From: Eledone cirrhosa
Lineage: Eukaryota
NCBI GenBank assembly: GCA_964016885.1
Contig: CAXHJY010001592.1
Coordinates: 8,071 to 72,070 of the forward strand
Length of the DNA: 64,000 bases
Direction of reading: 5' to 3'
In this document: in pieces, positions 2,869 to 50,414 of the stretch
Layout of the letters: every line of letters starts with the position of its first letter
How positions within the stretch are numbered: the stretch's first letter is position 1
Program-made: the position numbers and the translations under genes
The notes under the pieces: generated by a model
What the model was told of the DNA's origin: nothing
Database searches by the model: none
The model's input: only the letters and a program-made list of their open reading frames with translations

Positions 2869-3010
2869 TGGATTGGCAGTATCGGTAGAGGGTCGGACGC
2901 CATGCTTTCCAGCATAGTTACGTCCCTTTAAGATCTGAGTTCAAATCCCGCCGAGGTTTACTTTGCCTTTTATCCTTACGGGGTCGATAATATAAAGTAC
3001 CAGTAATGCA
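2869..3010 (+). mobile_element. tRNA-derived SINE with Nin/Deu-type central domain (truncated)
   Basis: A-box-like ggattggcagtatcggtagag, B-box gagttcaaatcc, and central tttgccttt(t/c)atccttacggggtcgataa. Confidence 0.85.
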
Positions 3011-4058
3011 TCCAGCAAATAGCTAACTCCATCCACCAGAGTATTATAGTTACTATAGACTACCCAAGCAAACACTCCAACCATCGATTACCTGTACTAG
3101 ACACAGAGCTCTGGTTAGATACCATTAATAACAAAAAACAAATCCTCCATTCCCATTATGCCAAACCCATGACTTCCAAATATCTGATCCACCGAAACTC
3201 AGCTGTTTCGGACCATACCAACATCAACATACAGATTGCGGATTTCGTACGGGTGATGAGAAACGTGTCCCGCATGTGCAACCCCGAAGAACTAGAGAGA
3301 CACATACAACACTTCATCCACCGTATGCAGTTCTCTGGTTACAATCAGAGAGATAAAATCAGAGTGTATAGAGGAGCCAGAACCAAATGGGAAAAAATGG
3401 TAAATAATGACACAAATGGGACCTGCCCCTTGTATAAGAGCAAATTTTGGAATAGAATAGAAAGAACTAGGAATAAGGCTAATAGAATAAACTCATGGTA
3501 TGATAGCAATAAATACCAGAGTGTAATGTTCATCGATACAACCCCTAGAGGTGAAATAGCTTACAAATTTAGAAGGGCCCTAGATAAACATAAACTCAAT
3601 ATTAAGATAGTAGAAAGACCAGGTACCTCCATAAAAACACTTATTAGCAAGGCATACCCTTTTCAAAGACCCCCTGTATAGATAAGAAATGTATAACCTG
3701 TAAATTATGCCCCCGTATTAACTGTAAAACTAGAAATGTAGTATAAAGCATAAGATGTACTGAAGGACAATGTAGAGACAAAAATATAGTGTACATAGGT
3801 GAGACAGCTCGTAGTATAGAGGAACGGATAAATGAACACTGGCGAGACCTTCAAGATAGTAAAGAATCATCTGTACTCTACCAACATGCTAAAATAGAAC
3901 ACAAGGGTAAATTAGAGAACATAGAAATAAAAATGGAATCTACACACAGAAAAGATGCAATGTTTAGACAAATCACAGAGGCAATAAACATAAAAGAATT
4001 ACAACCAAAATTAAATAGAAAATATGAGTGGAACAGCAACATCACAACTTACAATTAA
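3010..4058 (+). pseudogene. Penelope-like element 3' fragment: RT C-terminus, Cys-rich linker and GIY-YIG endonuclease, with stop codons
   Basis: ORF 3169-3681 (HRMQFSGY...SVMFIDTTPRGEIA...IKIVERPG) is followed by CITCKLC...CKTRNVV and YIGETARSIEERINEH...RQITEAINIKELQPKLNRK. Confidence 0.9.
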
Positions 4059-5047: not shown

Positions 5048-5235
5048 GTGTGTGTGTCTACTTGATGCAATATCAGTTCAGAGATTAGGAAAGCCACAAA
5101 TCAAGGTAGGACTCAATATAAATTTAGATGCAGAATATTTAGCCAGTTTGAACACATGCACGTATACATATGCACATGTGTGTAGTTGTCCCTACGTAAA
5201 TGACTATAATAATGATAATCGTCGATCACTATAAA

Positions 5236-5415
5236 TGTTTCTACTTTTGGCACAAGGCCAGCAATTATTTCAGTGCATTACTGGTACTTTATTTTATCGA
5301 CCCCCGTAAGGATGAAAGGCAAAGTTAACCTCGGCGGGATTTGTACTCAGACCATAAAGGGGCGTAACTCTATGCTGCAAATCATGGAGTCCGACTCTCT
5401 ACTGATACTGCCAAT
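5236..5415 (-). mobile_element. tRNA/Nin-domain SINE
   Basis: Reverse complement of the SINE consensus seen at 31061-31250. Confidence 0.85.
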
Positions 5416-5946
5416 AGTTAAGTAAATCAGTTAAAGTACCCAAGAAGATGGGAAAAAACTGAACATAGGCGCCAGTAGCTAGAAGTCTGAACATCCGGTT
5501 GACTAATGAAATATTGAGAAAATCGAAATTTGAAATGTAGTCGTCCCGACGAAAATGACTATAATAATAATATCGACTGCTAGAAATAATATTTGAGAAA
5601 AACGGTAGAATGTTATGTCGATACATTTTATACAAACACATAAATAAGAAAACTGGTTGTGTGACTTGGGCAAAGTGTTTAAAAACTAAATTCTGTACAA
5701 GAGGAAGTTACTCTTCCTTCCTTCTTAAATCATGTGGAGATAACTTTTTTCTACTGTGGACAGTTCAGTGAAATAAATGACTTGACATTTTTTACACAAA
5801 AGTAGTTTGAAGTTTCTATATTTACCTAAAAACCTTCCATCACATTTGTATGTACGATTGTTATGTTACAATCCAAACACCAGTTTAATAATTTTAATAA
5901 TGAAAAATAAATACTGTTCACACACACACAATATATATATATATAT

Positions 5947-6136
5947 AATTGTTTCTACTTTTGGCACAAGACCAGCAATTACCCAGTGCATTACTGGTAC
6001 TTTATTTTATCGACCCCGTAAGGATGAAAGGCAAAGTTAACCTCGGCGGGATTTGAACTCAGAATGGCAAGGACCGTAACTCTATGCGTCAAAGCATGGC
6101 GTCCGACCCTCTACCGATACTGCCAATCCACCGCCC
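5947..6136 (-). mobile_element. tRNA/Nin-domain SINE, full length
   Basis: aattgtttctacttttggcacaag...gatttgaactc...tgccaatccaccgccc. Confidence 0.9.
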
Positions 6137-6294
6137 TATGTTAGGTGTATAACAACAGGCAGCGCGCTGTTATATATATATATATATATACACACACAGG
6201 ATGCCCCCCCCCCCCCCCAAAAAAAAAATGTATACACACTTCAACAGCATTCAAATAAATATGTATATATTTTTGGGGGACAGACAACCTGTGC

Positions 6295-7214: not shown

Positions 7215-7297
<83 letters not shown>

Positions 7298-7584
7298 AAC
7301 AAATAACGAAACGAAATTAAATTTCGTTTCGCTTCTAACTCACTTTTGTATGACTGACACTTAAACAATTAAGTTAAAGTGTACATCCACATATGTATAC
7401 GGAAGTATTAGTATGCATATAAATACACACATGTATACATATGTACATGTACTGAGTTTTTCACTAGACACTTTACAGTGAGTGTCAGCTAGTCTGTATG
7501 TAACCACACAGATGGACCGGGTTTTAGAGTCATACGAGTTTTCAAGGAAAAACATTTCCTCTATTCTCCAGAGGGCCAGACAGG

Positions 7585-7628
7585 AATATTGGACTAGTTT
7601 CGATGTATTACATCTCATCAGCAATATT
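7585..7628 (-). ncRNA. Minimal hammerhead ribozyme, family 1
   Basis: Reverse complement of the 8419-8463 motif with a 1-nt deletion in stem-loop II. Confidence 0.8.
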
Positions 7629-8052
7629 TACCCATCTTCCGGCTTCTCTGGAGAATTGTAAAAGCACATATCGTTATATGCTTTTTCTATGAAAATTAGT
7701 AGTGGGTAGACCAATTTGCATAGAACGTGAGTTATTGTACGCACCGGTTCAGCGGAAACGATAAAAACAAATAACGAAACGAAATTAAATTTCGTTTCGC
7801 TTCTAACTCACTTTTGTATGACTGACGCTTAAACAATTAAGTTAAAGTGTACATCTACATATGTATACGGAAGTATTAGTATGCATATAAATACACACAT
7901 GTATACATATGTACATGTACTGAGTTTTTCACTAGACACTTTACAGTGAGTGTCAGCTAGTCTGTATGTAACCACACAGATGGACCGGGTTTTAGAGTCA
8001 TACGAGTTTTCAAGGAAAAACATTTCCTCTATTCTCCAGAGGGCCAGACAGG

Positions 8053-8097
8053 AATATTGGACTAGTTTCGATGTTATTACATCTCATCAGCAATATT
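8053..8097 (-). ncRNA. Minimal hammerhead ribozyme, family 1
   Basis: Exact reverse complement of the 8419-8463 motif. Confidence 0.85.
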
Positions 8098-8418
8098 TAC
8101 CCATCTTCCGGCTTCTCTGGAGAATTGTAAAAGCACATATCGTTATATGCTTTTTCTATGAAAATTAGTAGTGGGTAGACCAATTTGCATAGAACGTGAG
8201 TTATTGTACGCACCGGTTCAGCGGAAACGATAAAAACAAATAACGAAACGAAATTAAATTTCGTTTCGCTTCTAACTCACTTTTGTATGACTGACGCTTA
8301 AACAATTAAGTTAAAGTCACGTTCTATGCAAATTGGTCTACCCACTACTAATTTTCATAGAAAAAGCATATAACGATATGTGCTTTTACAATTCTCCAGA
8401 GAAGCCGGAAGATGGGTA

Positions 8419-8463
8419 AATATTGCTGATGAGATGTAATAACATCGAAACTAGTCCAATATT
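8419..8463 (+). ncRNA. Minimal hammerhead ribozyme, family 1
   Basis: aatattg-CTGATGA-GATGT aata ACATC-GAAA-CTAG-TC-caatatt: full catalytic core, 7-bp stem I, palindromic CTAG in place of stem III, GUC cleavage triplet. Confidence 0.9.
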
Positions 8464-8890
8464 CCTGTCTGGCCCTCTGGAGAATAGAGGAAATGTGTTT
8501 CCTTGAAAACTCGTATGACTCTAAAACCCGGTCCGTCTGTGTGGTTACATACAGACTAGCTGTAAACACTCACTGTAAAGTGTCTAGTGAAAAACTCAGT
8601 ACATGTACATATGTATACATGTGTGTATTTATATGCATACTAATACTTCCGTATACATATGTAGATGTACACTTTAACTTAATTGTTTAAGCGTCAGTCA
8701 TACAAAAGTGAGTTAGAAGCGAAACGAAATTTAATTTCGTTTCGTTATTTGTTTTTATCGTTTCCGCTGAACCGGTGCGTACAATAACTCACGTTCTATG
8801 CAAATTGGTCTACCCACTACTAATTTTCATAGAAAAAGCATATAACGATATGTGCTTTTACAATTCTCCAGAGAAGCCGGAAGATGGGTA

Positions 8891-8935
8891 AATATTGCTG
8901 ATGAGATGTAATAACATCGAAACTAGTCCAATATT
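8891..8935 (+). ncRNA. Minimal hammerhead ribozyme, family 1
   Basis: Same motif as 8419-8463. Confidence 0.9.
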
Positions 8936-9159
8936 CCTGTCTGGCCCTCTGGAGAATAGAGGAAATGTGTTTCTTTGAAAACTCGTATGACTCTAAAACC
9001 CGGTCCGTCTGTGTGGTTACATACAGACTAGCTGACACTCACTGTAAAGTGTCTAGTGAAAAACCCAGTACATGTACATATGTATACATGTGTGTATTTA
9101 TATGCATACTAATACTTCCGTATACATATGTAGATGTACACTTTAACTTAATTATATAT

Positions 9160-9540
9160 AGTATTAAGGATACTATTTATGGTTATGTATATACTAAAAC
9201 TTTTTATAGTTATAATAATCTTATATAAATAAAATACACATGCATGCCCCACGTGTAACTATTGCATACACTAACTACTTCAAACTGTCCTCTTGCATTA
9301 TCTTCGTAAACTGCCGATGTTGTATTTTAACTTTAATTTTGTTTTAATATGATTTTAATTTTTGAATATAAATTGGCATGCAAAAATATTATAATGGACG
9401 TAACCCCACCGTGCATCGATATATACATATGTTTCTGCATGTCTCTTGTGTTGGAAAGGAGGTCATGTATGTAAACAATCATTGAAAAATTGCTCCGAAG
9501 ACTCCAAACCTCGGTTTGGACGAAACTATTGATTCATGTG

Positions 9541-9545
<5 letters not shown>
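9160..9545 (+). mobile_element. Diverged 3' tail of the PLE family at 36796-42035, with a partial HHR at 9491-9530
   Basis: tgtctct...aaaggaggtcat...aaattgctccgaagactccaaacctcggtttggacgaaac matches 41730-41816. Confidence 0.7.
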
Positions 9546-9587
<42 letters not shown>

Positions 9588-10235: not shown

Positions 10236-10498
10236 CATATATATATAAATATATATTGTGTGTGTGTGTTGAGATATATGTATCTGTGTTCGTGTCTATT
10301 CTGTCGTTATAAATGTAGCAGCTGTTCTCAACACATAACCGAATAACAGAATATGTCTGGTTAAATCTAGTGACACAGTTTTACGTTATTGTCATAACTG
10401 TCGACGCTGTGACATTTATGCTGAAATAAACGCAGACAATAGGGACATGTTTGTGTGTGTGGGTGTGAGTCCGTTTATCTATTAGCATGTCTATCTAT

Positions 10499-11486
10499 GG
10501 GCGCCTGGCACACTGAGTGTGCCCAGGCGCTCACCGCCCTCTGGCAGGCGGATCCGGTTGTCAGTGGAGACTCCACCGCAACATTCTATAGAGGGCTGGT
10601 ACGCAGCAGGTGCGACGACGCCCTCGGAGAAGCCCTAGACATGGAGGAGGACGAACTGGCCAGCCTGTTCGGTAGGACATTCAGCCCGGGACCTATGGAC
10701 AACTTCCAGAAGTCCCTGGCCTGGCAGTGCTACCGAGGGGCTTTACCCGTTCGAGAAAGGCTCTACAGACACGGGCGCCCGGGTAGGGACCCCGCCAAAA
10801 AGATCTGTCCCAGATGCGTGTGCGACGAGGAAACCGTTGCACACGCATTGGTACACTGCTCGGGCGTAGCCGATCTGTGGGGCTATGTCGAACAACTGCT
10901 GTCAAGGGTGGGACCGATCCGGTTGACCACCGAGTCTATTGTAATGATCAAGCCGCCTCCCCCCTTCAAAGATGAAGCAGAGGCGGTGTTTCTGTGCGTA
11001 ATAGCCATGGCGAAAGAGGTTGTATGGTGGACGCGTCTGAAAGGACTGAGGTCGGGCACCTTTCTCTCTGGCCAACAACTGGTCCGTTTCTTCCGATATC
11101 ATTTCGGAAGAAGGATCAGGATGGAGAGAGAGGTGCTGCACCCCAGCCGTTTCTATGAAAGATGGGTGAAAGTGGCGAGAATGGCCCGTGTGAATGGGCC
11201 TTCACTCTACATCAGACTATAGGTGAGGAAGATGAAAGACCAAGGGAGCACCCCTTCTCTGTGCTCCTGAGGAGAAGGGTTGCACACTTTTTTCGGGGGT
11301 GTGTGCGACCCCCCAAGGCGCCTCCTCTCTATTGAGGATTTTGTTAAAAATTTTATTTTTTGTTATATCTTATTTTATTTTTATATTTTGTTATTGCCTC
11401 CTCCTTATTGAGGACGCCTTTTTGTGTAAACTCCCCCCTTTGTACTTGTCCCACTTTTGATGCCCTAGTGGCAAATAAAAGAAATA

Positions 11487-13967: not shown

Positions 13968-14246
13968 GAGAAAGGGGTTGAGATACAGAGAGAAAGGGGT
14001 TGAGATAGAGAGAGGGAGGTATGATGATGATGATGTTGTTGTGAGAGATAGAAAGAGAGGGAGACCGGGTGTGTGAGAGAGAAATGCACTGATTCGAATC
14101 CACAGAAACGCGGGCGGTGCGTGCAAAAAGAGATATATACACATATAAGCATATTATCTCTGTCCGCTCACTCCCCCACTCTCTCTCTGAATATATATAT
14201 ATATATATATATATAATAAATGTAATCTGAGTTTTTCGAATATTAA

Positions 14247-14437
14247 TAATTGTTTCTACTTTTGGCACAACGCCAGCAATTACCCGGTACTTTACTGGTA
14301 CTTTATTTTATCGACCCCGTAAGGATGAAAAGCAAAGTTAACCTTGGCGGGATTTGAACTCAGACCATAAAGGGCCGTAACTCTTTGCTGCAAAGCATGG
14401 CGTCCGGGCCTCTACCGATACTGCTAATTCACCGCCC
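14247..14437 (-). mobile_element. tRNA/Nin-domain SINE
   Basis: Matches the SINE consensus. Confidence 0.9.
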
Positions 14438-14566
14438 TTATAATAATATTCTCAGATGAATAAACTCAGATTACATATATTGTATTCAGCCATGTAGAGT
14501 GGAAATTTATATATATGTATATATATATGTAAACGGTAAACAGAAATAACAGCACAAACGGTACAG

Positions 14567-15385: not shown

Positions 15386-15672
15386 TGAAGCAACAAAGCA
15401 ACAAAGATATGGACAGATTGAAATGAAAGAGAGAAACCTATTTTAGTGACCGACATTTGGAAGAGAGAGAGACTGATAAATAACAGATTGACAGATGGAG
15501 AAATAGAGAAAGAGAGAGAGACAGAGCGAGGGGTGTAGAGATTTGGATATATTAAAATAAACCAGTAAAAAAAAACAAAAAAAAACAAGAGGGACCTAGT
15601 TTAATGGCCGACATTTTGAAAGTAGTGATGTGAGTGTGACGTAACAATGGAGATTAGTAGACTAATATGAAA

Positions 15673-16555
15673 TAATTGTTTCTACATTTGGCACAAGGCC
15701 AGCAATTACCCAGTGCATTACTGGTACTTTATTTTATCGACCCCGTAAGGATGAAAGGCAAAGTTAACCTCAGCGGGATTTGAACTCATAATGGCAAGGA
15801 CCGTAACTCTATACGTCAAAGCATGGCGTCAGACCCTCTACCGATACTGCCAATCCACCGCCCTTCTAATATGAAATAATTGTTTCTACTTTTGGCACAA
15901 GGCCAGCAATTACCCAGTGCATTACTGGTATTTTATTTTATCGACCCCGTAAGGATGAAAGGCAAAATCAACCTCGGTGGGATTTGAACTCAGATCGTAA
16001 AGGGACGTAACTATGCTGGAAAGCATGGCGTCCGACCCCCTACCGATACTGCCAATCACCTCGATGAAATAATTGTTTGTACGTTAGGCACAAGGCCAGC
16101 AATTACCCAGTGTGATTAGTTGTATAGTACAGTTGTACAGCTGTAATTAACTCCCTTTTTTACACAGCTCATCACACATACCTTTATTATTGTGAGGGCG
16201 GTGGATTGGCAGTATCGGTAGAGGGTCTGACGCAATGCTTTACAGCATAGAGTTACAACTCTTTATGATATGAGTTCAAATCCTGCTGAGGTTAACTTTA
16301 CCTTTCATCCTTACGGGGGTCAATAAAATAAAGTACCAGTTACGTACTGAGGCTGATTCAATCGACTTTCCCTTCCCCCAAAATTGCTGGCCTTGTGCCT
16401 ATATAAGAAATCATTATTATAAGGGCGGGGGATTGGCAGAATCGGTAGAGGATCGGACACCATGATTAGCAGCATAGAGTTACGGCCCTTTACTGTCCGA
16501 GTTTAAATCCCGCCGGTGTCGATAAAATAAAGTACCAGTAATGTACTGAAGTCGA
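15673..16555. mobile_element. Cluster of tRNA/Nin-domain SINEs (minus: 15673-15863, 15877-16057, partial 16070-16111; plus: 16195-16420, 16422-16555)
   Basis: Repeated SINE consensus; duplicated flank ctaatatgaaataatt at ~15662 and ~15866. Confidence 0.9.
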
Positions 16556-18144: not shown

Positions 18145-19143
18145 GTTTTCTCTTTCTCTTAATTTCGAGTATATTTTTTTTGACCGGCCACCTTCCTGGT
18201 GGCAAGGTTGTAAAAGAAAAGAAATTGTCATCCCTTGAATCGCAATAATGTTTTGCATATTTTGAAGGTGCCAGCTATCGCAGCCATTTGTAGACTATGA
18301 ATTAGGGAGCTGCGCTTTTTGTCCGCAAATCCAAGTTCGGTCATACTTTGGTCCAAGCGGGTTGGTATATAACCCGTAGCACCAATAATGATGGGTATGA
18401 AGCTAAAGGTGTATCTTGGATACTGGATTTGTAAGCTCCTCATCAATGGTCCGTAGATGTCCTCCTTCTCCTGTATTTTTCTGACAACGTTTACATCAAG
18501 TGGGCAGCTTATCTCCACAACAGAACACGTTTTCAATGTGTGGTCCCAAACTACAATATCAGGCCGGTTGTGCTTTAATTTGGTGGCAGTTTTTATTTTC
18601 AGGTTCCACCAGTATTCCTTAGTGCCATCTGTCTCAATATATTCTTCCTCGTTTGTTGTTAATTTTGTTTTCCGAAGTGCGTTCCAGATAGTTCTAGCTA
18701 TCCCATCGTGTCTCATGGGGAGGTAGTAGCGAGATGACATTCTTTCGCAGCTGGCAACAATGTGGCTTACATCCTCGATCTTTGTTTTACATAGCCTACA
18801 TTTATTGTCAGCTGCTGGCCCTCCTCTTTTGTGCAGCAGATATTTGGTAGGGAGTTCTTGTTCCTGTATTGCATAGAGATATCCCTCAAGGTGTGATGTC
18901 ATAAACTTGTCGGAACTCCATGCCAGGCTTTTTGAGTGGTTTATCCCCTCTATGGTCTGTGTTTTACGCCTCAAGTATCCATGCACAACTTTCTCTGTAA
19001 ATTGGTCAATTTTTTTTTCTTGTTTGAACATTGAATAGGATCTTCCGATTTCTCTGGGTGAGAGATTTATATCAGGCTTTATTCCATATCTCTCCTCCAG
19101 ATCAGTCGCTATTCTAATGATATTTCTTTTTTCATGCTCATAA
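18145..19143 (-). mobile_element. 5'-truncated non-LTR retrotransposon with restriction-like endonuclease (R4/Dong-type), inside (TATG)n
   Basis: Open frame to stop at 18228: CRLC...EDVSHIVASC zinc knuckle, RHD, KHNRPDIVVWD...VVEISCP...KEDIY (PD..E/D-xK type RLE). (TATG)n on both sides. Confidence 0.9.
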
Positions 19144-19302
19144 TGTATGTATGTATGTATGTATGTATGTATGTATGTATGTATGTATGTATGTATGTAT
19201 GTATGTATGTATGTATGCATGTATGTATGTATGTATGTATGTATGTATGTATGTATGTATGTATGCATATATGTATGTATGTATGTATATATGTATGTAT
19301 AT

Positions 19303-19711
19303 GGGAGAGATGACCCCTTAGCCTTTGTCAAGGCAGAATTCTAGGAGAAGGAAAACTCTGATATAGCACCTGCAACCCTGATGGTATCCAATGATGTTGA
19401 CTTGTTCTTCTTTTTGGTAAATATCATCTTGGTTAAGAGAGTGGGACTGGCTTTGTGCAGTGCCTTTGCTCACTATAAAAGCTTCACGGCACAAGCATTG
19501 CTTTATATCTGGAGATCTCTCTGCACTTGTCGTCACATGGTCCCATGGGCCCAGCACTAAGTGTCAATAATTGTCACAAGTGTAGTGTTTGTACCAGAGT
19601 TTTCAAGTCGCTGGCTGGACTAAAAAGTCACACTCGTTCAGCGCATCGGTAGGGGTTCTCCTACATGGATATAAAGTAGTGGCCGTACTCGAAAACGAGT
19701 TGGCAGCCACG
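19303..19711 (+). mobile_element. Non-autonomous bipartite RTE-derived element, 5'-truncated copy
   Basis: RTE 5'-UTR-like motif tctaggagaaggaaaactctga joined to a 3' end encoding [24 protein letters not shown]; hairpin actcg-aaaa-cgagt; (ATGT)n tail. Confidence 0.75.
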
Positions 19712-21426: not shown

Positions 21427-22420
<994 letters not shown>

Positions 22421-22957
22421 AAAAAAATATATATATATATTTTATGTTTATTTTAACACGTCTGTTGAGAACTCTTATTCGATATGTGATTTTTTGTATT
22501 ACAAAATTTACACTTACTGAATTCTTTCGCCACGTGCGTCCAGTAACAGGTCCCCCTGTATTCTTGAACGAAACATCCGTTGAGAAAGCACGTTCCACGT
22601 TCATCTTTACTAGAAGTCAGATATTTTTTTTATGTGGGCTGACAGTAATTGATTAAGGAACTGCAGAAACCCAAAAAGCTAGAATTTAACATCCTTCTAG
22701 CGGGTCCAGGTGAGTTTTTTACATTCATTTAATCTATTAATTTATTAATTTTTTATTTGAATGACCCGAATTTTCCTGGTCGTTTTTTTTCGGTTGTGCG
22801 ATTGATTCTAAGCATCGTCTTTATGTGTTGGTATTTTAACGATAGTTATAGCTCTGGTTCATCCAAACTATTGAGCCCTCTGCTACACATGTCGAAGTTT
22901 GTTTATCGTTATTTCGTGGGCCGAAATTCTGATTCTCGATTATTTACTTATATATAT

Positions 22958-24640
<1,683 letters not shown>

Positions 24641-24661
24641 TAAATAATAATTTTTTTCTGT

Positions 24662-25332
24662 ATACGAGAATAAATCCAGGATGCAGTTGCAGGAAGCCGG
24701 ATGAATGCCCATTGCAGGGTAAATGTAACACCAAATCTGTTGTTTATGAGGCTAAGATAACACCGGTAATCAACAACCAGCCAGCCAGGAGTGAGCGATA
24801 TGTCGGTATGACCCAGGACAGGTTTAAAACCAGATTTTACTCACATGTCGCTTCTTTTAAGCACTCCGATAAACGAACATCAACACCCCTCGCAAGTAAG
24901 GTGTGGGAACTCAAGGATAGTAACATCCCGTACTCTATTGATTGGTCTATATTAGACCATTCGAGCGAGTACCAAAGGGGCACGAAGAATTGTTCTTTGT
25001 GTACCACAGAAAAGTATAGGATTTTGCTAAAATTGAGAGCCACTTCCGCTTGCCTTAACTCAAAGACTGAGATCTTCAGTTGCTGTCCTCATCTGAAATC
25101 GCATCTGATCTGTAACTGGATTGACACTCCTATGATAAATCAACCGCCTTGAACTCCTTCTCTGCTCTTTACTTCTGGTACGGTTTTTATTTTGCTGAAT
25201 CTACGTTCTGTACTCTTGTATATATATTTTTTTCTCCCTTACCTCCCCTTATATTTCACCTTTTCCTATGTCCCCCCCCCCCATATATTCTTTTTGCCTT
25301 GCCCTTCACATACCTATGTGTATGTGTATGTG

Positions 25333-25429
<97 letters not shown>

Positions 25430-25647
25430 TTGTGTGTGTATATGTATGTATATGAGGATAGACCAGGTATTTTCATTCTGAAGATTGAAGGAAAAACTTT
25501 TTGCTTTTAATAAACCACTGGTGAATGGAATAATTGCTTTATGTTGCTTATTACTTTATTACCTTACTACTATATATATGTAAGGTTCATATGAATTATC
25601 TAAGACTGAGTTTTACACACACACACATGTATATGTGTATGTATGTG

Positions 25648-25712
<65 letters not shown>

Positions 25713-26141
25713 ATGTGTGTGTGTTTGTATTTGGTTGTGCGTGTTTATGATATGTACGTATTTGTATGTGTATAATTGTATAGCTATGTACGTATATGTG
25801 TGTGTGTATGTATACATATATGTGTGTGTGTGTATTTTTATATTTATGTATATATATATATATATGTATGTGTATATAATTACATATACATATGTGTGTG
25901 TGTATGTGTGTGTATATGTGTGTGTATATGTGTGTATATATAATTGTATACGTGTGCGTGTGCGTGTTTGTGCATGTATTTGTGTATGTGTATGTATGTG
26001 TTTATGTATTTGTATATGTATATTTATGTGCGAGAGTGTGTGTATGTATTTACTATTTCGTACGTATGTATACGTGCATTTGTGTGTATTACTTACCACG
26101 CGTGTCTGTCCAGTTACCTGCAGTTTGAATCGCTGTCAAAA

Positions 26142-26147
<6 letters not shown>
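24662..26147 (+). mobile_element. Inverted duplicate of the PLE 3' portion (GIY-YIG ORF 24712-25152 + tail)
   Basis: Reverse complement of 22958-24407 with few substitutions; degenerate HHR at ~25473-25530 (TAAA instead of GAAA). Confidence 0.9.
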
Positions 26148-26223
<76 letters not shown>

Positions 26224-27434: not shown

Positions 27435-28138
<704 letters not shown>

Positions 28139-28153
28139 TATATATATATATAT

Positions 28154-28672
28154 AAACGGAAAAAATGAAACGAAATTTCATTTCCCACTCTTAGTACGAC
28201 TGTTACTTAAATATAAGTATGTACACGTACATACATATATGTATACAGACGTACAGTAGTATGTATATATATATACATACATGCACACATATATATATAT
28301 ATGTACGTATGGATTCACCGAACATTTATTATAATGCTCGGTGTGTTTGTAAACAAACATCCCGTATTAAGCCGTAGTATCCAGCAACCATCGTTGCTCG
28401 TTTTTTCAACACTGACAAAGGAACGCTGTACTAGTTTCAAGCTTATTAGCTATCGTCAGCAACGTATACCTTCCTGCCAGATTGTTGAACGTATATACTT
28501 ACCTTATGCATATTAACGGCTGAGTAGCCCAATTTGCATATCGAGTGGGTTAATTAGCCGGGTGCACCGAAAACGATAAACGGAAAAATGAAACGATATT
28601 TCATTTCCCACTCTTAGTACAGCTGTTACTTAAATATAAGTATGTACACGTACATACATATATGTACGTGTA
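28154..28672 (-). mobile_element. ~424-bp HHR-containing tandem unit, ~1.2 copies (retrozyme-like, family 2)
   Basis: Unit start aaacggaaaaatgaaacg recurs at 28154 and 28578. Shares ccaatttgcata, ccgg..ca.cg.aaacgataaa and a hairpin with family 1. Confidence 0.75.
28423..28465 (-). ncRNA. Minimal hammerhead ribozyme, family 2
   Basis: Minus strand reads acgttg-CTGACGA-tagct aata agctt-GAAA-CTAG-TA-cagcgt. Confidence 0.8.
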
Positions 28673-31060: not shown

Positions 31061-31250
31061 GGGCGGTGGATTGGCAGTATCGGTAGAGGGTCGGACGCCA
31101 TGCTTTTCAGCATAGTTACGTCCCTTTACGGACTGAGTTCAAATCCCGCCGAGGTTAACTTTGCCTTTCATCCTTACGGTATCGATAAAATAAAGTACCA
31201 GTAATACACTGGGATAATTGCTGGCCTTGTGCCAAAAGTAGAAACAATTA
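31061..31250 (+). mobile_element. tRNA/Nin-domain SINE, full length, with TSD
   Basis: A and B boxes plus Nin-like domain; ttatctttattactttct on both sides. Confidence 0.9.
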
Positions 31251-31369
31251 TCTTTATTACTTTCTGTATTTAGATATTCTAAATAGATTCTTAAAATTAT
31301 GTTATGCAATATTTAAATACCTTTTTACATATTTTATTCTAAGGAAAATTGACATTACGGCAGATAACA

Positions 31370-33790: not shown

Positions 33791-34261
33791 AAAATGTTTC
33801 TAAATAATTAAAATAATATCAAAGTAACATGGAACATTGCCCAATAACTGATAAACATTATATTTCTTTATTTTACCATTTAGTCAGCGAATATAGGACA
33901 GCACCCCGTGATCCTTTATTGTTTTAGTGTCTTCGAGACTAGTGAGATGAAGGGAGGAAGTTATCCTCAAATCGGACACCTGACCTAAATACTTGCAACT
34001 TAATTATTTCCGTTAAAAGTACTCAAGGACCGGGTGTTGATATTAATCCCAGGGACGTATTAAGTTCAACACCAAAGAATTAAGGTTATAGGGAACTGGA
34101 ACAATTACCGCAAGGTATTTCAACCAAGTGTCTAAAATTTCCGGTTAATCTAATAATTGTGAAAGGATGAACAACTAAGTCAACTTCAGCAGGATTTGAA
34201 ATCAGAACATAATGCAAGCCATTTGTCTGACACTAATGAATCAGTCAATTCACCACCCTAT

Positions 34262-34447
34262 ATAATTGTTTCTACTTTTGGCACAAGGCCAGCAATCACA
34301 CCAGTGCATTACTGGTACTTTATTTTATCGTAAGGGTGAAAAGCAAAGTAAACCTCGGCGTGATTTGAACTCAGAACGTAAAGGGCCATGACTCTATGCT
34401 GCAAAGCATGGTGTCTGACGCTCTACCGATACTGCCAATCCCCCGCA
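34262..34447 (-). mobile_element. tRNA/Nin-domain SINE (older degenerate copies at 34160-34260, 34490-34550 and 35090-35220)
   Basis: Matches the SINE consensus. Confidence 0.85.
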
Positions 34448-34639
34448 CTATATGATTTCCAGTCATCTTCCGTCCATGACTGCTACTTTAATTCATCAAC
34501 CTCTGGAAGGATGAAAGACAAAGTCAGGTTCAGTGGCATTCGAACGCAGGACATATAGAACTATAACTAAATACACAATGTTCTGACATAGACACAAGAC
34601 ACCAATTATTTTCTTTTAAGGGAGGTAGGGGTGAAAATA

Positions 34640-35994: not shown

Positions 35995-36210
35995 GATTTC
36001 TGATTTAGGTATAAGGCCGACAATTTTTGGGGAGGGGAAAGTCGATGAAATCGACCCCAGTACATTACTAGTACTTTATTTTATCTACCCCGTAAGGATG
36101 AAAGGCAAAGTCAACCTCGGCAGAATTTGAACTCAGAACGCAAAGGGCCATAACTCTATGTCGCTAGGCATGGTGTCCGATGTTCTACCGATGCTGTCAA
36201 TCCACCGCCC
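35995..36210 (-). mobile_element. tRNA/Nin-domain SINE, long-tail variant
   Basis: SINE consensus with a ggggaggggaaagtcgat tail. Confidence 0.85.
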
Positions 36211-36645
36211 TGTACTTTACATTAATTAATAAATTAATTTATTATTTAAAGTAAAAAGGATTGGGATGAGTCAAGGCTATGATAAATAACATTTACTCAA
36301 GATGCCACACAGTGAGATTGAACCACGGACCTTATGGTTGTGAAGCGAGCATCTTAACTATTTGGACATGATGTGTCTAGATGTAAATATGACAATGGTG
36401 AAACATTATTAGTCTATCTGTGTGTTTCTTTTCCGTTATATTATTATATATTTCAATGATTAAGGTCAGAACAGCATTAAATTGCAGATTTATTAATCTC
36501 ATTATGAAAGGAGCATTATAATTAGTGAAAAAAGGTATTAATTAAACCGCGTTATACAGACAACCAATATTTTAAGCTTTTGTTTCGTACAACAAATCTG
36601 GGGATAGCTCTTAATTCATAAAATATTATATAACTTAATTCCACA

Positions 36646-36743: not shown

Positions 36744-36800
<57 letters not shown>

Positions 36801-36838
36801 GAAATATAAGAATCAAAGAACTGTTCAAAACATTATTG

Positions 36839-36885
36839 TGCTTACAGCTGTTTCCTCCAAACCGAGGTTTGGATTCTTCGGAGCA
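36839..36885 (-). ncRNA. Hammerhead variant (CCGAAGA core) in the PLE tail
   Basis: Reverse complement of 41781-41827. Confidence 0.65.
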
Positions 36886-38328
36886 ATTTATTAATGCATG
36901 GACAGTTATATGACCTCCTTTTCAGCCGAGAGACATACCAATACATATTCAAACATTGATACATATTCAAACATTGTGGGTCAACATTCATTACAAAATT
37001 TAGAGTGGCAGTACACACTTCGAGATTACATTTATATTAATAGGTACAATCAAAAATCAAAGATATAGGTTAAAGTACAACATGAAGATAAGTGGTTATA
37101 TAGTGCAAATGTTATATGTGTGGCACGCATGTGCGTCTTGTTTATATAGTGTGGCAGAGAGATATGTGTGGTAGAGGCACTTAGGTAGGTAAATAAGAGT
37201 GTTAGGTTGGTAGATCTGGTGGCAAAGTCTTTATATGATTGATGTAGTCTGTGTGTGGAGAAATATTATAAGCATTAAAGATAGTGCAAGCATTAAAAGT
37301 GTTATAAGTATTGGAGATGCACAACGCAGGGATGTCAAGTAATTCATGTACTTCGGCATTTTCATGGTCAAGGGAGTGTATATTTCGATTATATGCCTTT
37401 CACATAATCCACGACAATCCAGTTAGAGATCGTAGTCTGGTGTTCTTTAGTTCGATACAGGAGGTTGTTACGTTTCGAGAGACGCCATTGAATACCGGAA
37501 GTGTGTGTGTGGCTAAGGGGAGTTAATGCATGCGGGGAGGTAACTCTGGGGTTTCTATATCTAGCCATTAAAATGTGTCCCAATATGGACCCTAAATTCT
37601 ATGGTGAGGTGCACCTTCCAAGAGAGACTTTTAAAGCATAAAGTGTACTAACTATAGAGTAGTTTAACTAAATTATGCTGAAGGTGATCATATTATTATT
37701 AAGGTGGATTAACCCATCTTAAGGTGCTACAAATGGAAATTATAGATGATGAGCGAGGATTCTAAATTAATGATCTCTGTGGTTGTAGTCTGCTCATATG
37801 ACCAGGCGCGGTGATTGCAGGATTGCTTCAGGACCCAATGATCTCTGGTAAGATCTGGGTCATCGCTTGCTACATTGGATGTCGAAAGATAATCGTCCCC
37901 AGGCAGGCCAAAGGTCAATCCGCAGTCCTCGCGACCCCTCTCTGACCGTCAGATCATCCATATACGTACAACCCGCACGGCAGTTGCATTGCATTCACTC
38001 ACTGCGCTCAGCAGCCCGGTCCTACTGGTCAACAGCGCTACTCGATTAAATCATTTTACATCTGTCTAAGGAAGGTGTTTCCTCTGCCCAACACCATCCA
38101 ACCGATCAATTCATGCTCAAATTACCCTTAGAGCGGTGTAGTGCCGTCCAGGTGGGTGGATGTTGTCACACCTGCCGTAGAGGTATAAATGGGTATTTTC
38201 CCTGCGAAGGGTTCCAGAGGGATGTCGTTGTTTGTGTTATAATGGATCAGCTAGTGTTGGGTATGTAGTATAGGGTGTGTCTCTGGTGTTTGATGCTAGA
38301 TGTGGTGTTAGGTTCCAGTCCGACATTG

Positions 38329-40680
38329 CTATATATAGGGCTTAAAGTTTTGGAAGGAATGTCTGAGGCGGTGTTGGCAAGTTGCAAACACCTCCGATTT
38401 TTTGTTAAGTAGGTTACGGTTGGAGAAGATAATATTGTGTGTCTCTAGTATACAGAGGTTACAGAATTTATTAGGTGGTTTGTACGAGGTCGCGCTGCCT
38501 ATCACTTCCCATTTGAGTGTGTATGGTTTATTTTTAGATTTTAGATAGTGTATGTAGCTAGAAAGTGAGGTGGAGTTGGCTAGGCTGTGCTTTTTGAACG
38601 AGTGGATGTGCGAGTTATATCTAATTTTGAAGCAGTTAGAAGTGGAGCCTACATAGGTTTCTGAAGAGTTATTAGTCGTGACTGTGCATGAGTATATGAC
38701 ATCCTTGGTTAGGCATTTTTTATCTAAAGGGCAGGTTCTATTAGCTCTACAGTTACAATTATTCTGTGCGTTAGTCCGCTGGTTATAATGCAATGCGGAA
38801 GTCTGTGTGGTGGATATAGGATTTTGGGTGTTCAGGTTGACAACCCTGGTGTTATTACTTATACTAGTGTTATTTCTATTGTTACTGCCGTTGCTATTGT
38901 TGCTTGCTACAGTGGTATTTAGAGGGTTTGCATCCCGTTGTGATTTTGTTTGTTGGAAGTAAGAACTAATTTTACTATTATTGCTGCTAGCTATGTGGTA
39001 TGCTAAGTTAGGCGTCGTAGAGTATGAGATTTTAATGGTGTTTTTGTTTAAGAGGTTGTGGTACTTGTGTCCTAGAGGGAAGTTTTTATCTAGTAGTGAG
39101 AAGAAAGCCCTAGGTATGTTGGTGGAGACATTTAGGTTGAAAGGAGGGTTGAAAAATGTATTATTTCTTCTTCTATTTTTGCTTTTAGTGTTTGGTGTGT
39201 TGCTTCCTCCTAAGGCCTCACAGTAGTTTCCATGGTAATGGTTACTTCCGGTGGCACCCTCCGCTTTGGTGTACTTGTGGTTGCTATTCCTATTATTAGA
39301 TTTCCTCATGGACATGTTGTGCGAGATGATGTTGTAGCTATGTGTTTTCTTAGGTAGGAACTCTATTTCTATATTATGGCCGGAGCTAGCTAATGCTTGA
39401 TTGTAATATTGTGAGTTTTTGCTAAATATGTTTGCGTCATAGGACAGACTAGAGATTCTATTGGACACCCCCTTAGAGATAGAGTTTAATATTGATCTAG
39501 GGTGATTAGACTTGGTATCTACGTAAATAAGTTTCTCATTAGGCTTATGGAAAGGTGTATATATTTTTGAGTCTAGGTATAGTGTGGCGTCAAGGAAGTT
39601 AACATTTTTAGTGTTTTTGTCCATGGTGATACTAAGGTTAAAGTTTTTGAATGTCTTATGCAGTTGTTTTCTAGTTCTTTCTATATTAAATTTTTTATAT
39701 TCTATGAGTAGAAGTGCATCATCGCGGTACAAACCACCGTTGAGGTAAGGGAGGTCTTTATGGATTTCATTGAGGAGGTATAGGCCGACCAAATCAGTGA
39801 CCTGCGCCGAGTCACTAGATCCCATGGTTATGTCGAAGTTGTTGTGCGTATCCTTGCGTGTCCATAGTTGGTCCTCGAAGGTGATTATGGTTTTACGGGC
39901 CGCAAGGATGACATCAACCTGGGCTCTAGTCAGGTCGCTATTGGTCATGGCCATGATAAGTGCCTTATTTAATAGGATAGGGGAAATAGAGGTGTAGTAT
40001 GAATTGATATCAAATTGAATAAATTTTTTGTTCTTATTATTCTTGATATCCTTAAACCATTCAATTACTTCACCCGTATTTCCCCATTGTTTAAGGTGTA
40101 TCTTGTGTTTAATTTGTGGGATGATTTTATCCAAAATCTTCTTGCTGATAATACCAATGTCGGACTTGGAAGGGCAGATAAGTCTTATCGTGGGGTTGCT
40201 GATGAAGTTCTCCTTATGGTCCTTCAGAGAGAATCTAGGGGGGTTCGGAGTGAAAGGTTGTGTATGCCTCTGTAGTCCTAGTTTAGACACTATATTATAA
40301 CCCTCTACATTAATATCTTCTAAGTTTTTCAAGGTGGTTTTTTTGTAGCTTTTATGTAGTTCATTATATATAAACTTTCTATAAGTAATATAATCTAGGC
40401 TGTATATGTTATTAGTTTTATCTGCGTGTACAATAATTTTATTACTAGTTTTGAATCCACTAATAGAAGTGTTAAGTTTGTTTAAGAAGGTGTTGCTTCT
40501 AATATGGTGCTTATTGTATTTAATGTTCTTAACTAGTTTAACTAGGTCATTTTCAAAGGAGTTAATTAGAGTGTTATGAGGGGGGCTTTTAAAGGTTTTA
40601 AAGCCGAAGGAGTCAAAATTGTTAGTATTATTCAAGTTGTTAGATTTGTTTCTATCATAATGGAATGTCCTCCATCTCAC
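38329..40680 (-). CDS. Penelope-like reverse transcriptase + C-terminal GIY-YIG endonuclease (783 aa, N-terminally truncated)
   Basis: ADKTNNIY, LKDHKENF...IRLICP, FIQFDINSYYTSI, TMGS, LYRDD, VNFLD, SNHP; CNC...CPLDKKC...VIY...YVGST...RYNSH; CNLCILE...LN..SE. No internal stops; GTG start only ~14 nt from the inversion junction. Confidence 0.95.
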   Translation of the reverse strand: MRWRTFHYDRNKSNNLNNTNNFDSFGFKTFKSPPHNTLINSFENDLVKLVKNIKYNKHHIRSNTFLNKLNTSISGFKTSNKIIVHADKTNNIYSLDYITYRKFIYNELHKSYKKTTLKNLEDINVEGYNIVSKLGLQRHTQPFTPNPPRFSLKDHKENFISNPTIRLICPSKSDIGIISKKILDKIIPQIKHKIHLKQWGNTGEVIEWFKDIKNNKNKKFIQFDINSYYTSISPILLNKALIMAMTNSDLTRAQVDVILAARKTIITFEDQLWTRKDTHNNFDITMGSSDSAQVTDLVGLYLLNEIHKDLPYLNGGLYRDDALLLIEYKKFNIERTRKQLHKTFKNFNLSITMDKNTKNVNFLDATLYLDSKIYTPFHKPNEKLIYVDTKSNHPRSILNSISKGVSNRISSLSYDANIFSKNSQYYNQALASSGHNIEIEFLPKKTHSYNIISHNMSMRKSNNRNSNHKYTKAEGATGSNHYHGNYCEALGGSNTPNTKSKNRRRNNTFFNPPFNLNVSTNIPRAFFSLLDKNFPLGHKYHNLLNKNTIKISYSTTPNLAYHIASSNNSKISSYFQQTKSQRDANPLNTTVASNNSNGSNNRNNTSISNNTRVVNLNTQNPISTTQTSALHYNQRTNAQNNCNCRANRTCPLDKKCLTKDVIYSCTVTTNNSSETYVGSTSNCFKIRYNSHIHSFKKHSLANSTSLSSYIHYLKSKNKPYTLKWEVIGSATSYKPPNKFCNLCILETHNIIFSNRNLLNKKSEVFATCQHRLRHSFQNFKPYI

Positions 40681-41780: not shown

Positions 41781-41827
41781 TGCTCCGAAGAATCCAAACC
41801 TCGGTTTGGAGGAAACAGCTGTAAGCA
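41781..41827 (+). ncRNA. Hammerhead variant (CCGAAGA core) in the PLE tail
   Basis: tgct-CCGAAGA-atccaaacc tc ggtttggag-GAAA-CAGCTG-TA-agca; palindromic CAGCTG at stem III. Confidence 0.65.
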
Positions 41828-42345
41828 CAATAATGTTTTGAACAGTTCTTTGATTCTTATATTTCATATAACTGCTCTGTAAATCATCTGATGTTTTTAC
41901 ATTGAGCTACTTAACTTACTGGTAATAAGGTAGTAATACATTACTGCCTACCACTATTTAGGGTGTGTGTAAAATACTTACAACTGCTTAAGGTTTTGTG
42001 TTTACATAACCATAAATAGTATAACTAATACTATATATATATATAAACTAATTATCCATATTAAAAAAATTGTTTATAAGCCATAAATAAAAACGTACTT
42101 CCTCATCCGTTTTTACATGTCGTGGTCTTTGCCTATCAAGATCTCACGTTCAATCAACTACTACAACATCAAAAAACTATGTAGCCAAACCACAGTTGCC
42201 GTAATATGTGATTGAAAGCAACGATGCTTAATTTCATCAAATGCTTGCTAAAAAAAAAGACAACATATCGTTACCATATTTCTAATAAAAGATTCTGCCA
42301 ATGGTTTTCAATTCATTTTGAAAATAATCAATACTTTAGAGTGAT

Positions 42346-47411: not shown

Positions 47412-47474
<63 letters not shown>

Positions 47475-47477
<3 letters not shown>

Positions 47478-47699
47478 TGTACACGTACATACATATATGT
47501 ATACAAACGTACAGTAGTATGTATATATATATACATACATGCACACATATATATGTACGTATGGATTCACCGAACATTTATTATAATGCTCGGTGTGTTT
47601 GTAAACAATCATCCCGTATTAAGCCGTAGTGTCCAGCAACCATCGTTGCTCGTTTGTTCAACACTGACAAAGGAACGCTGTACAAGCTTATTAGCTATC
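47475..47699 (-). mobile_element. Truncated family 2 retrozyme-like unit with damaged HHR
   Basis: Matches 28217-28454; tagtttc is deleted from the core; (TA)n on both sides. Confidence 0.75.
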
Positions 47700-48545: not shown

Positions 48546-48665
<120 letters not shown>

Positions 48666-48887
48666 AATTAAGTTAAAGATGTACATCCATATATGTATAC
48701 TGAAATACTAGTATGTATATGAATACACACACGTATACATATGTAGATGTACCAAGTTTTTTCACTGGTCACTTTACTGTGAGTGGCCAGCTATTCTGTA
48801 TGTAAACACACAGACAAACCGGTTTTTAGAGTCATACTGGTTTTTGAGGAAACACCTTTCCTCTATTCTCCAGAAAGCCAGACAAGG

Positions 48888-48932
48888 AATATTGAACTAG
48901 TTTCGTTGTTGTTACAACTCATCAGCAATATT
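48888..48932 (-). ncRNA. Minimal hammerhead ribozyme, family 1b
   Basis: Reverse complement of 49700-49744 with one loop change. Confidence 0.8.
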
Positions 48933-49699
48933 TACCTATCTTCCGGCCTTTCTAGAGAATCGTAAAAGCACATATCGTTATATGCTTTTTCTATGAAAAT
49001 TAGTAGTGGGCAGACTAATTTGCATAGAGTGTGAGTAAGTACCGGTTCAACGGAGACGATAAAAACAAATAACGAAACGAAATTAAATTTCGTTTCGTTT
49101 GTAACTCACTTTTGTATGACTGACGCTTAAACAATTAAGTTAAAGATGTACATCCATATATGTATACTGAAATACTAGTATGTATATGAATACACACACG
49201 TATACATATGTAGATGTACCAAGTTTTTTCACTGGTCACTTTACTGTGAGTGGCCAGCTATTCTGTATGTAAACACAGACAAACTGGCTTTCTGGAGAAT
49301 AGAGGAAAGGTGTTTCCTCAAAAACCAGTATGACTCTAAAAACCGGTTTGTCTGTGTGTTTACATACAGAATAGCTGGCCACTCACAGTAAAGTGACCAG
49401 TGAAAAAACTTGGTACATCTACATATGTATACGTGTGTGTATTCATATACATACTAGTATTTCAGTATACATATATGGATGTACATCTTTAACTTAATTG
49501 TTTAAGCGTCAGTCATACAAAAGTGAGTTACAAACGAAACGAAATTTAATTTCGTTTCGTTATTTGTTTTTATCGTCTCCGTTGAACCGGTACTTACTCA
49601 CACTCTATGCAAATTAGTCTGCCCACTACTAATTTTCATAGAAAAAGCATATAACGATATGTGCTTTTACGATTCTCTAGAAAGGCCGGAAGATAGGTA

Positions 49700-49744
49700 A
49701 ATATTGCTGATGAGTTGTAGCAACAACGAAACTAGTTCAATATT
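49700..49744 (+). ncRNA. Minimal hammerhead ribozyme, family 1b
   Basis: aatattg-CTGATGA-GTTGT agca ACAAC-GAAA-CTAG-TT-caatatt. Confidence 0.85.
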
Positions 49745-50414
49745 CCTTGTCTGGCTTTCTGGAGAATAGAGGAAAGGTGTTTCCTCAAAAACCAGTATGA
49801 CTCTAAAAACCGGTTTGTCTGTGTGTTTACATACAGAATAGCTGGCCACTCACAGTAAAGTGACCAGTGAAAAAACTTGGTACATCTACATATGTATACG
49901 TGTGTGTATTCATATACATACTAGTATTTCAGTATACATATATGGATGTACATCTTTAACTTAATTGTTTAAGCGTCAGTCATACAAAAGTGAGTTACAA
50001 ACGAAACGAAATTTAATTTCGTTTCGTTATTTGTTTTTATATATATATATATATATATACATACATACACATATACATTATCTCATACATAGGCCACATA
50101 CAAACATAAACACTGTAGTGTCAAATCAAGGTAGTTTATCAAGTTCAGTGCTATTTGCATTAGATCTTATATATTAGTTTCGGATTTAGACACAAGGCCA
50201 GCAATTTGGGACGAAGTGGAAGTTGATTGAATTATAATATAATTGACATGAAAAACAAACACATTCAATTTACTAAATCTCACAATGTCATGAAAAACCA
50301 TTGACATTATATAAAAAATAATTGAGCAATATCTAATAAAAACAAAGAACACTATTAAAGGGAGCAACAAAAGAAGAAAAAGGAAATGAAGAGAAGAAAG
50401 AGAAAAATGTGTCA

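Follow-up and report, generated by a model that had tools for sequence, protein, structure and literature searches.

Do the short blocks that recur in hammerhead ribozyme (HHR)-bearing repeats of this DNA constitute an internal promoter, and if so of what kind, or do they serve the RNA? A first-pass annotation had read an octamer and its neighbouring blocks, shared by two repeat families, as a promoter of snRNA type joined to a ribozyme and an RT-recognition hairpin. We examined this reading across the window, by which we mean the whole 64-kb stretch, an AT-rich region (GC mostly 0.25-0.44) with 137 tandem-repeat rows, microsatellites, SINE-like repeats and retrotransposon fragments. The annotation's block sequences are written on the strand opposite to the ribozyme. 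Throughout, T1 and T2 denote two candidate reverse-transcription (RT) start sites, and H1 the hairpin between them.

Three colinear subfamilies of one retrozyme

Families 1 and 2 (F1 and F2) had been described as keeping the blocks in the same order while the rest of the repeat diverges. The order is indeed kept, but the second part of that statement is not confirmed: the entire unit aligns colinearly, with 413 of 463 positions identical (89%) between F1 and family 1b (F1b), 257 of 411 (62.5%) between F1 and F2 and 260 of 411 (63%) between F1b and F2, and 242 of the 483 columns of the three-way alignment are invariant. The blocks share their order because it was inherited with the whole unit. 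Unit periods are 468-469 bp in F1, 467 bp in F1b and ~424 bp in F2. The three arrays contain no ORF of at least 120 aa, and nhmmer over the window, low-complexity matches aside, yielded no further diverged member. As judged by these alignments, F1, F1b and F2 are colinear homologues, subfamilies of one 424-469-bp non-LTR hammerhead retrozyme.

Self-BLAST, repeat periods and mapped ends delimit the F1 insertion to 7293..9153, with two inverted arms, one of 2.2 units with its RNA sense on the minus strand (7293-8317) and one of 1.8 units with its RNA sense on the plus strand (8318-9153). The F1b insertion (48661..50040) also has inverted arms, with octamers at 49018 and 49607, and its T2 end (48661) and T1 end (50040) both lie on (TA)n. 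F2 is represented by 1.2 units of ~424 bp on the minus strand (28152..28666; octamer at 28532-28539, HHR core at 28459), with a T1 end on (TA)n, and by a 5'-truncated copy, F2b (47473..47699, minus strand), which has a T2 end and a hammerhead with a 7-nt deletion. Along the RNA strand the order of elements is the small hairpin holding T2, H1, TTTATCGT (T1), CGGTR, the ATGCAAAT hairpin, a TATA-like word and the hammerhead. One cleavage-to-cleavage monomer, the predicted linear or circular retrozyme RNA, would correspond to 7592..8060 on the minus strand, 468 nt between successive GAAACTAGTC sites. The tandem F2 copies at 28152-28243 and 28576-28666 differ at four of 89 positions; one of these differences is a two-base swap which, inspected by eye, keeps the pairing with its long-range helix partner in both variants, and which points to a template that was multimeric and heterogeneous instead of a single rolling circle.

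The ribozyme and the folding of the unit RNA

The F1 unit carries a type I hammerhead with a minimal palindromic stem III (ACTAGT) at 7586..7627 on the minus strand (Rfam Hammerhead_1, 29 bits, E 1.5e-4); cleavage is predicted between 7592 and 7591, and stems I and II show changes on both sides. Seven type I cores occur in the three arrays, on the strand opposite to ATTTGCAT, and the ACTAGT palindrome is invariant in F1, F1b and F2. Compared with Rfam, the four F1 cores matched HH9 (31.8 bits, E 1.4e-5) or Hammerhead_1 (29 bits), both below the gathering threshold; no hammerhead was among the 69 Rfam matches for the F2 core, which has a U-U at the base of stem II, and the F2 ribozyme may be weak. 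Non-LTR retrozymes have a tandem non-coding unit of ~150-450+ bp, a size that the present units fit, and a recent preprint (bioRxiv 10.64898/2026.07.22.740005) calls active those with at least two consecutive hammerhead-bearing units. Both F1 arms have at least two such units in succession (8090 with 7621, and 8426 with 8898), and neither the F1b nor the F2 insertion does.

The predicted RNA is highly self-paired (66-69% of bases). Circular folds of the ribozyme strand gave z values of -9.8 (F1), -11.9 (F1b) and -6.9 (F2), against -7.5, -6.6 and -4.6 for the antisense strand (60 dinucleotide shuffles each). Separate predictions for F1 and F2 placed four helices at homologous columns (H1, an extended form of stem I, stem II and a hairpin that follows the ribozyme), and eight of their 30 pairs show both-side changes. 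Among the 135 pairs common to F1 and F1b, 57 are unchanged in F2, 12 changed on one side, 12 changed on both sides, 28 broken and 26 gapped, part of the 28 breaks being register shifts of the alignment. By this comparison of sequences, the predicted hammerhead RNA fold is backed by compensatory changes. A long-range helix is also predicted, in which AGTCATAC (7816..7823, minus strand) pairs with GTATGACT (7996-8003); its arms can pair in F2 too, yet the helix is absent from the predicted F2 ensemble. Sub-threshold miRNA matches at a (TA)-rich hairpin were rejected as compositional.

Insertion ends point to an RT-start RNA domain

Six outer ends of the four insertions could be mapped, three at T1 and three at T2. 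The T1 ends of F1b (50040) and F2 (28152) fall exactly at TTTAT|CGT and that of F1 (7293) within 4 nt of it, and the T2 ends of F1 (9153), F1b (48661) and F2b (47473) fall in a small upstream hairpin, within ~5 aligned nt of each other. The internal equivalents within an F1 unit, both on the minus strand, are the TTTAT/CGT block at 7758..7765 (ACGATAAA on the plus strand) for T1 and the small hairpin at 7828..7846 for T2; T1 and T2 are 74, 69 and 64 nt apart across the families. Long (TA)n adjoins five of the six ends, and 9153 adjoins just ATATATA. Each of the two-armed insertions, F1 and F1b, has one T1 end and one T2 end, and both show an inverted 5'-truncated arm and partial tandems, with inner inversion points that differ between them.

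These are features known from Penelope-like elements (PLEs), for which a terminal extension ("tail") at one end only and an inverted truncated copy are described as hallmarks (PMC8557442); the tail of anole Poseidon reaches from one internal RT start to the other, and the element needs RNA lying 3' of these starts (PMC11167929). In minimum-energy folds of all three families, T1 lies in the same setting. An enclosing stem (7727..7811, minus strand; 7804-7811 paired with 7727-7734; arms GTGAGTTA/TAACTCAC in F1 and GAGTGGG/CCCACTC in F2) closes both H1 (7773..7801, minus strand), where F2 has a compensatory change from C-G to U-A, and a T1 stem (7742..7763, minus strand) formed by TATCG (7763-7759) and CGGTR (7746-7742), the latter corresponding to the annotated CCGG block.

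The hairpins and the CCGG/CGG block themselves read as the annotation had described them. Its "RT-recognition hairpin" gains direct genomic support, with insertion ends mapping on both sides of that hairpin, and its use of CCGG and ACGATAAA as promoter boxes gives way to an RNA start site of reverse transcription, which explains both better. Because the insertion ends cluster at T1 and T2 and the folds agree, we read the non-octamer blocks (H1, ACGATAAA and CCGG) as an RT-start RNA domain, and consider this assignment probable. The invariant UAU may pair with a nicked (TA)n primer. A degenerate H1 pattern scan of genome contigs returned six bacterial loci, whose profile matches cover the hairpin alone (best 13 bits) with no octamers, and these were attributed to chance.

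Conservation of the octamer

On the ribozyme strand the octamer reads ATGCAAAT and lies 80-100 nt 5' of the catalytic core. It is invariant in F1 (7714..7721, minus strand), F1b and F2, with exact plus-strand ATTTGCAT at 7714-7721, 28532-28539 and 49018-49025, the last as annotated for family 1b, and further copies at 8183, 8326, 8798 and 49607; the CCA that precedes it is CTA in F1b. Exact octamers number 14 in the window, seven of them within these repeats and seven in the 56 kb outside. The pattern AATTTGCATA-N20-45-ACGATAAA matched six times, always inside the repeats, and 100 shuffles gave no match. At the nine other HHR sites examined, the 300 nt upstream contain no exact octamer, and in the 584,131 characters of the PMC8557442 supplement the octamer appears 11 times, with no sign of a hammerhead link in those passages.

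The octamer lies in the 5' arm of a hairpin (7686..7724, minus strand) whose 3' arm (7689-7696) is a 7/8 inverted octamer; this hairpin starts 33-39 nt 3' of T1, and most of its pairs have probabilities of 0.86-1.0 in all three families. Eight of its 11 pairs are unchanged and none has changed on both sides (Fisher test against both-side changes in the other helices, P=0.16; pair-count shuffles were uninformative, 156/500). Between F1 and F2 the octamer arm differs at none of 12 positions and the partner arm at three of 12, the mismatch differing from lineage to lineage, compared with 20 of 60 positions (33%) in the four other shared helices; at that rate of change, 0/12 has P=0.008 and 0/8 has P=0.04, both post hoc. 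The octamer block is also the longest exact F1/F2 run (12 nt; column shuffles, P=0.10) and shares first place among the three-way runs (10 nt; P=0.20). Per 50 columns, invariant positions number 34 from the octamer onward, 32 in the ribozyme, 32 in the hairpin/T1 region and 37 in the (TA)-rich hairpin, and 34/50 as a window maximum is not significant (P=0.28). An exact octamer is expected by chance with a probability of 0.027-0.056 per unit and nine of 476 8-column windows are invariant, which gives a joint chance of ~0.0005-0.001 for presence plus invariance, a post hoc value uncorrected for the number of recognisable motifs. All these conservation statistics come from three lineages and are hence weak and post hoc. 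By substitutions (0/12 versus 20/60), the octamer is under tighter constraint than the ordinary stem arms of this RNA. Our most likely reading is that the octamer would be the one block under constraint on its sequence rather than on its pairing.

Candidate promoters around the octamer

That the octamer serves as a promoter element in the DNA, whatever its kind, has in our view about an even chance. Downstream of the octamer, each of the three families has a sole match to [CT]ATA[AT]A in the next 110 nt, at +41, +41 and +42 from the octamer start (CATATAA in F1, 7674..7680, minus strand; TATATAC in F2), from which a start near 7649-7655 would be predicted; matches of six out of seven to such a word occur in essentially every shuffle, that is, they are common by chance. 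From the octamer to +50, 38 of 52 positions are identical, with a single-base indel at two places and larger indels on both flanks, and the F2 word is without a strong pairing partner in the predicted fold. Another TATA match, at 7888, occurs in F1 alone and was discarded. This spacing fits a compact Oct-TATA Pol II promoter, the type found at immunoglobulin and H2B genes, better than it fits an snRNA DSE. In mouse Nos2, an OCT site plus a TATA box within 62 bp is a working minimal Pol II promoter (pNOS-62; PMC3891534), which the present arrangement resembles in that some tens of bp separate an upstream ATGCAAAT from a TATA box. Counting against this reading, the sole mapped Penelope promoter, that of Drosophila, is described as TATA-less with a DPE (PMC2377424). 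Compact Oct-TATA promoters are known from vertebrate protein-coding genes, whereas here there is a sequence arrangement alone, with an imperfect TATA, in an invertebrate retroelement. That the octamer and the TATA-like word would form such a promoter is the reading we favour among promoter types, though at less than even odds.

The snRNA-type internal promoter proposed by the annotation is unsupported: no PSE-like score exceeded shuffles on either strand, at any distance. In this reading the octamer would act as a DSE, or as an RPPH1-like DSE beside a PSE, and a lineage-specific PSE would bring in Pol II or III. It draws on the invariance of the octamer in three families and on newt satellite 2 as a precedent (as cited in PMC2220036, which gives newt and schistosome precedents for internal promoters in hammerhead repeats); conservation is moderate in the 18-column windows that adjoin the octamer on its 3' side (14, 12 and 12 of 18), with the TATA-like box at their end, an arrangement loosely resembling RPPH1, where the DSE is adjacent to the PSE (PMC9652321). 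PSEs diverge between lineages (PMC1761439), so that of the host could be unrecognisable, and we found no mollusc PSE in the literature. However, in six family/strand scans each, neither the human key-position PSE pattern (lowest P 0.12) nor the predicted S. japonicum PSE (PMC5460494; lowest P 0.23) rose above 300 shuffles, and the best scores of both fell at non-homologous places among the families. The Drosophila PSEA invariant positions (PMC1761439) were matched by eye at four of seven, the stringent position 5 being missed. Spacing argues the same way. In snRNA genes the PSE lies 40-70 bp upstream of the start and the DSE at -250 to -170 (PMC9652321), but 100-210 nt from the octamer, where a PSE would then be expected, lie the ribozyme and covarying stems, and the non-ribozyme stretch at that distance is the least conserved half of the unit (22-23 of 50 columns invariant). 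Octamers look dispensable in mosquito U6 promoters (PMC13662585), and 5-T runs inside the unit would stop Pol III, yet the inserted arms exceed one unit. Altogether we judge an snRNA-type promoter improbable.

Searches for other promoter signals gave little. Against consensus motifs, the best 3' box matched 7-8 of 10 positions (P 0.39-0.99) and A and B boxes, as in a tRNA-type Pol III promoter of the schistosome Sm-alpha kind, were not above shuffles in the unit; the window contains no tRNA or tRNA-derived head and had no Rfam hit at the gathering threshold, and so offers no snRNA gene for deriving the PSE of the host. A plus-strand promoter, with GTGAGTTATTG by the octamer resembling the predicted S. 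japonicum PSE (13/21, P=0.23; 11/21 in F2), was rejected, the stretch being an arm of the enclosing stem and the promoter one for the wrong strand, and so was a vertebrate-PSE-like word in the post-ribozyme half of F1 and F1b (by eye, against a consensus), which F2 does not keep and which is an arm of the long-range helix. A SECIS element was dropped after inspection by eye, and a sigma-70 promoter scan is inapplicable to a eukaryotic host.

Two further explanations dispense with a promoter at the octamer. Its hairpin could be an RNA element, read by a PLE or host RNA-binding protein 3' of the RT start, with the Oct match coincidental. The hairpin is highly probable in all three families, keeps eight of 11 pairs and begins where an RT-binding element would be expected, and the anole PLE needs RNA 3' of its internal RT starts (PMC11167929). 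This account leaves unexplained why the invariant word should be the canonical octamer (~3-6% per unit by chance) and why the octamer-TATA-like spacing should be fixed, given indels on both flanks; we hold it possible but on the unlikely side. Alternatively, the octamer may be under no special constraint: in an RNA that is 62% identical and highly paired, a run of this length could arise by chance, with transcription by read-through from flanking DNA. Runs of at least 12 in 10% of column shuffles, and seven exact octamers in the 56 kb outside the repeats, are compatible with this, but other shared stems change at 33% of positions and octamer presence together with invariance has a joint chance of ~0.001, and we consider pure chance unlikely.

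PLEs and other repeats in the window

The retrozymes share the window with PLEs. A Hydra-clade PLE insertion (36796-41870, frame on the minus strand) contains an 814-aa stop-to-stop frame (38329-40773) with RT and C-terminal GIY-YIG regions and RWR, DKT, CxCX5C and YVGST motifs. Because a 1177-bp perfect inverted copy of its 3' region occupies 40694-41870, the true ORF probably lacks its 5' part, being cut off at 40693. The terminal hammerhead of this insertion has the variant core CCGAAGA (~41786 and 36880). Among the 120 relatives listed for the ORF, the sole one with a named taxon is an Argonauta hians protein 39% identical to it, and Octopus bimaculoides is a described source of Hydra-clade PLEs with (TA)n targets (PMC8557442 supplement); from both, the host would probably be an octopod cephalopod. 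No Pfam family was assigned to this ORF or to two other PLE fragments (three of the five proteins were without a match). By its motifs, the 814-aa frame is a candidate for the kind of enzyme that would mobilise the retrozyme. The PLE has no DNA in common with F1 or F2, and neither an autonomous partner nor a pLTR homologue was found within the 64-kb window.

Other PLE-related sequences were noted. Near the F1 array, 9427-9546 is a 3'-end fragment 80% like the Hydra element terminus, with a shortened CCGAAGA hammerhead-like core and a (TA)n end. Another HHR repeat forms an inverted pair at 21498-22400 and 27440-28140 (cores at 21646, minus, and 28055, plus), one of its 3' ends being longer than the other by a 63-nt tail; the F2 copy sits in (TA)n at the short end of this repeat. 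Nested between its arms is an inverted PLE 3' fragment (22941-26170), which includes a GIY-YIG of Hydra type (CSCRKPDEC, 23917-25152), has hammerheads at 23573 and 25478 and carries a 3' region that is long and microsatellite-like. Near-perfect palindromes by (TA)n at 44012-44127, 57227-57333 and 59722-59857 look like a hammerhead 3' half (GAAA, stem III, GTC, stem I arm) that doubles back on itself at stem II, with an inverted copy in place of the CUGAnGA half, and isolated hammerhead-like cores (CTGATGA...GAAA) occur on the plus strand at 59990-60020 and 639-670. A 1245-bp self-inverted (95%) element between (TA)n runs at 44470-45714, with no ORF of 120 aa, is probably another PLE-type fold-back insertion, and 3007-4040 is a broken PLE fragment in which an RT thumb is followed by a GIY-YIG-like stretch after a stop at 3679-3681.

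The remaining repeats include LINE 3' fragments with zf-RVT at 10443-11222 (plus, E 4.5e-6) and 18228-19340 (minus, E 4e-6), and a degenerate (AT)n array of 3.7 kb at 60249-64000. An abundant ~190-bp repeat, probably a SINE, has copies 82-97% identical, some in tandem (5230-5415, 5939-6137, 14240-14438, 15662-16548, 31061-31257, 34259-34451, 36049-36214, 51586-51911, 52712-53080 and others).

A proposed cycle and its relation to known systems

We are nearly certain that the element is a non-autonomous PLE-type retrozyme, and lean, with less assurance, towards a whole model of a PLE-mobilised retrozyme in which a probable Pol II promoter of compact Oct-TATA type follows the RT-start RNA domain and would fire shortly upstream of the ribozyme. 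Tandem units would be transcribed on the ribozyme strand, with a POU factor on the octamer and the TATA-like box 41-42 bp downstream acting as the compact Pol II promoter. The start would fall ~70-75 nt beyond the octamer, immediately before stem I and 35-60 nt before the cleavage site; with a start just before the ribozyme, every unit could launch a monomer, to be cut out by the next ribozyme pair. The minimal hammerhead with its palindromic stem III would cut multimers into 424-469-nt monomers, whose circularisation would be expected from their class. A PLE RT/GIY-YIG protein, acting in trans, would nick (TA)n DNA and prime RT at T1 (UUUAU|CGU) or at T2, the small hairpin 64-74 nt upstream, and each complete insertion carries one end of each kind and an inverted 5'-truncated arm.

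Newt satellite 2 offers the nearest parallel for such a promoter. Coats, Zhang and Epstein reportedly showed experimentally in 1994 that its octamer and a PSE stand in snRNA spacing, and its transcripts in newt ovary are said to start shortly upstream of the ribozyme, which the predicted start in the retrozyme would match. The two systems share a tandem unit, a minimal dimer-type hammerhead and an internal octamer, and differ in that no PSE was found here and the octamer lies ~70 nt from the predicted start, with the TATA-like box between.

In other respects the element resembles metazoan non-LTR retrozymes as described by Cervera and de la Pena in 2020 (PMC7229834) and in the preprint of Li, Clavereau and Pollet (bioRxiv 10.64898/2026.07.22.740005), which argues that they are non-autonomous PLE derivatives: non-coding tandem units of a few hundred bp with low GC, one type I hammerhead per unit, a highly self-paired RNA and PLEs alongside. 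It departs from published retrozymes in that its insertion ends bear the PLE tail and inversion signature and in that a candidate promoter can be located. With Poseidon of Anolis (PMC11167929) and the (TA)n-targeting Hydra clade (PMC8557442) it has in common two internal 3' termini, an inverted 5'-truncated arm, partial tandems, a hammerhead and (TA)n targets. Unlike these PLEs it is a retrozyme without an ORF, its tail is 64-74 nt compared with 30-40 nt in published PLEs, and its RT starts lie ~210-300 nt rather than ~85-125 nt 3' of the cleavage site. Earlier publications cover the retrozyme class, its connection with PLEs and the internal promoters of hammerhead satellites. The text of the preprint makes no mention of promoter, octamer, snRNA, mollus- or tail, and this family, a cephalopod retrozyme promoter and the tail signature on a retrozyme were not found in a search of mostly open-access literature.

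Animal retrozymes are abundant circular RNAs whose promoters, newt and schistosome apart, are unaddressed in the literature examined, and their mobilisation by PLEs has so far been argued from co-occurrence and pLTR homology. The insertion ends described here give the two-start tail of PLEs on a retrozyme, with exact candidate RT start sites, and the octamer with its TATA-like word offers one candidate promoter that can be mutated and for which a start is predicted. Should this promoter be real, it would be an invertebrate parallel to newt satellite 2; if false, the hairpin becomes a candidate PLE protein-binding element. We suggest, tentatively and at less than even likelihood, that an invertebrate retrozyme, independently of newts, has built a ~450-bp mobile module from a POU-octamer promoter (Oct-TATA or compact SNAPc) firing shortly before a hammerhead and, back-to-back with it, a three-way-junction RNA that sets two PLE RT starts; in it, the same 40 nt may double as DNA enhancer and RNA hairpin. 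Such a module, if true, would explain the high expression of animal retrozymes and would provide the first defined cis-elements for PLE mobilisation.
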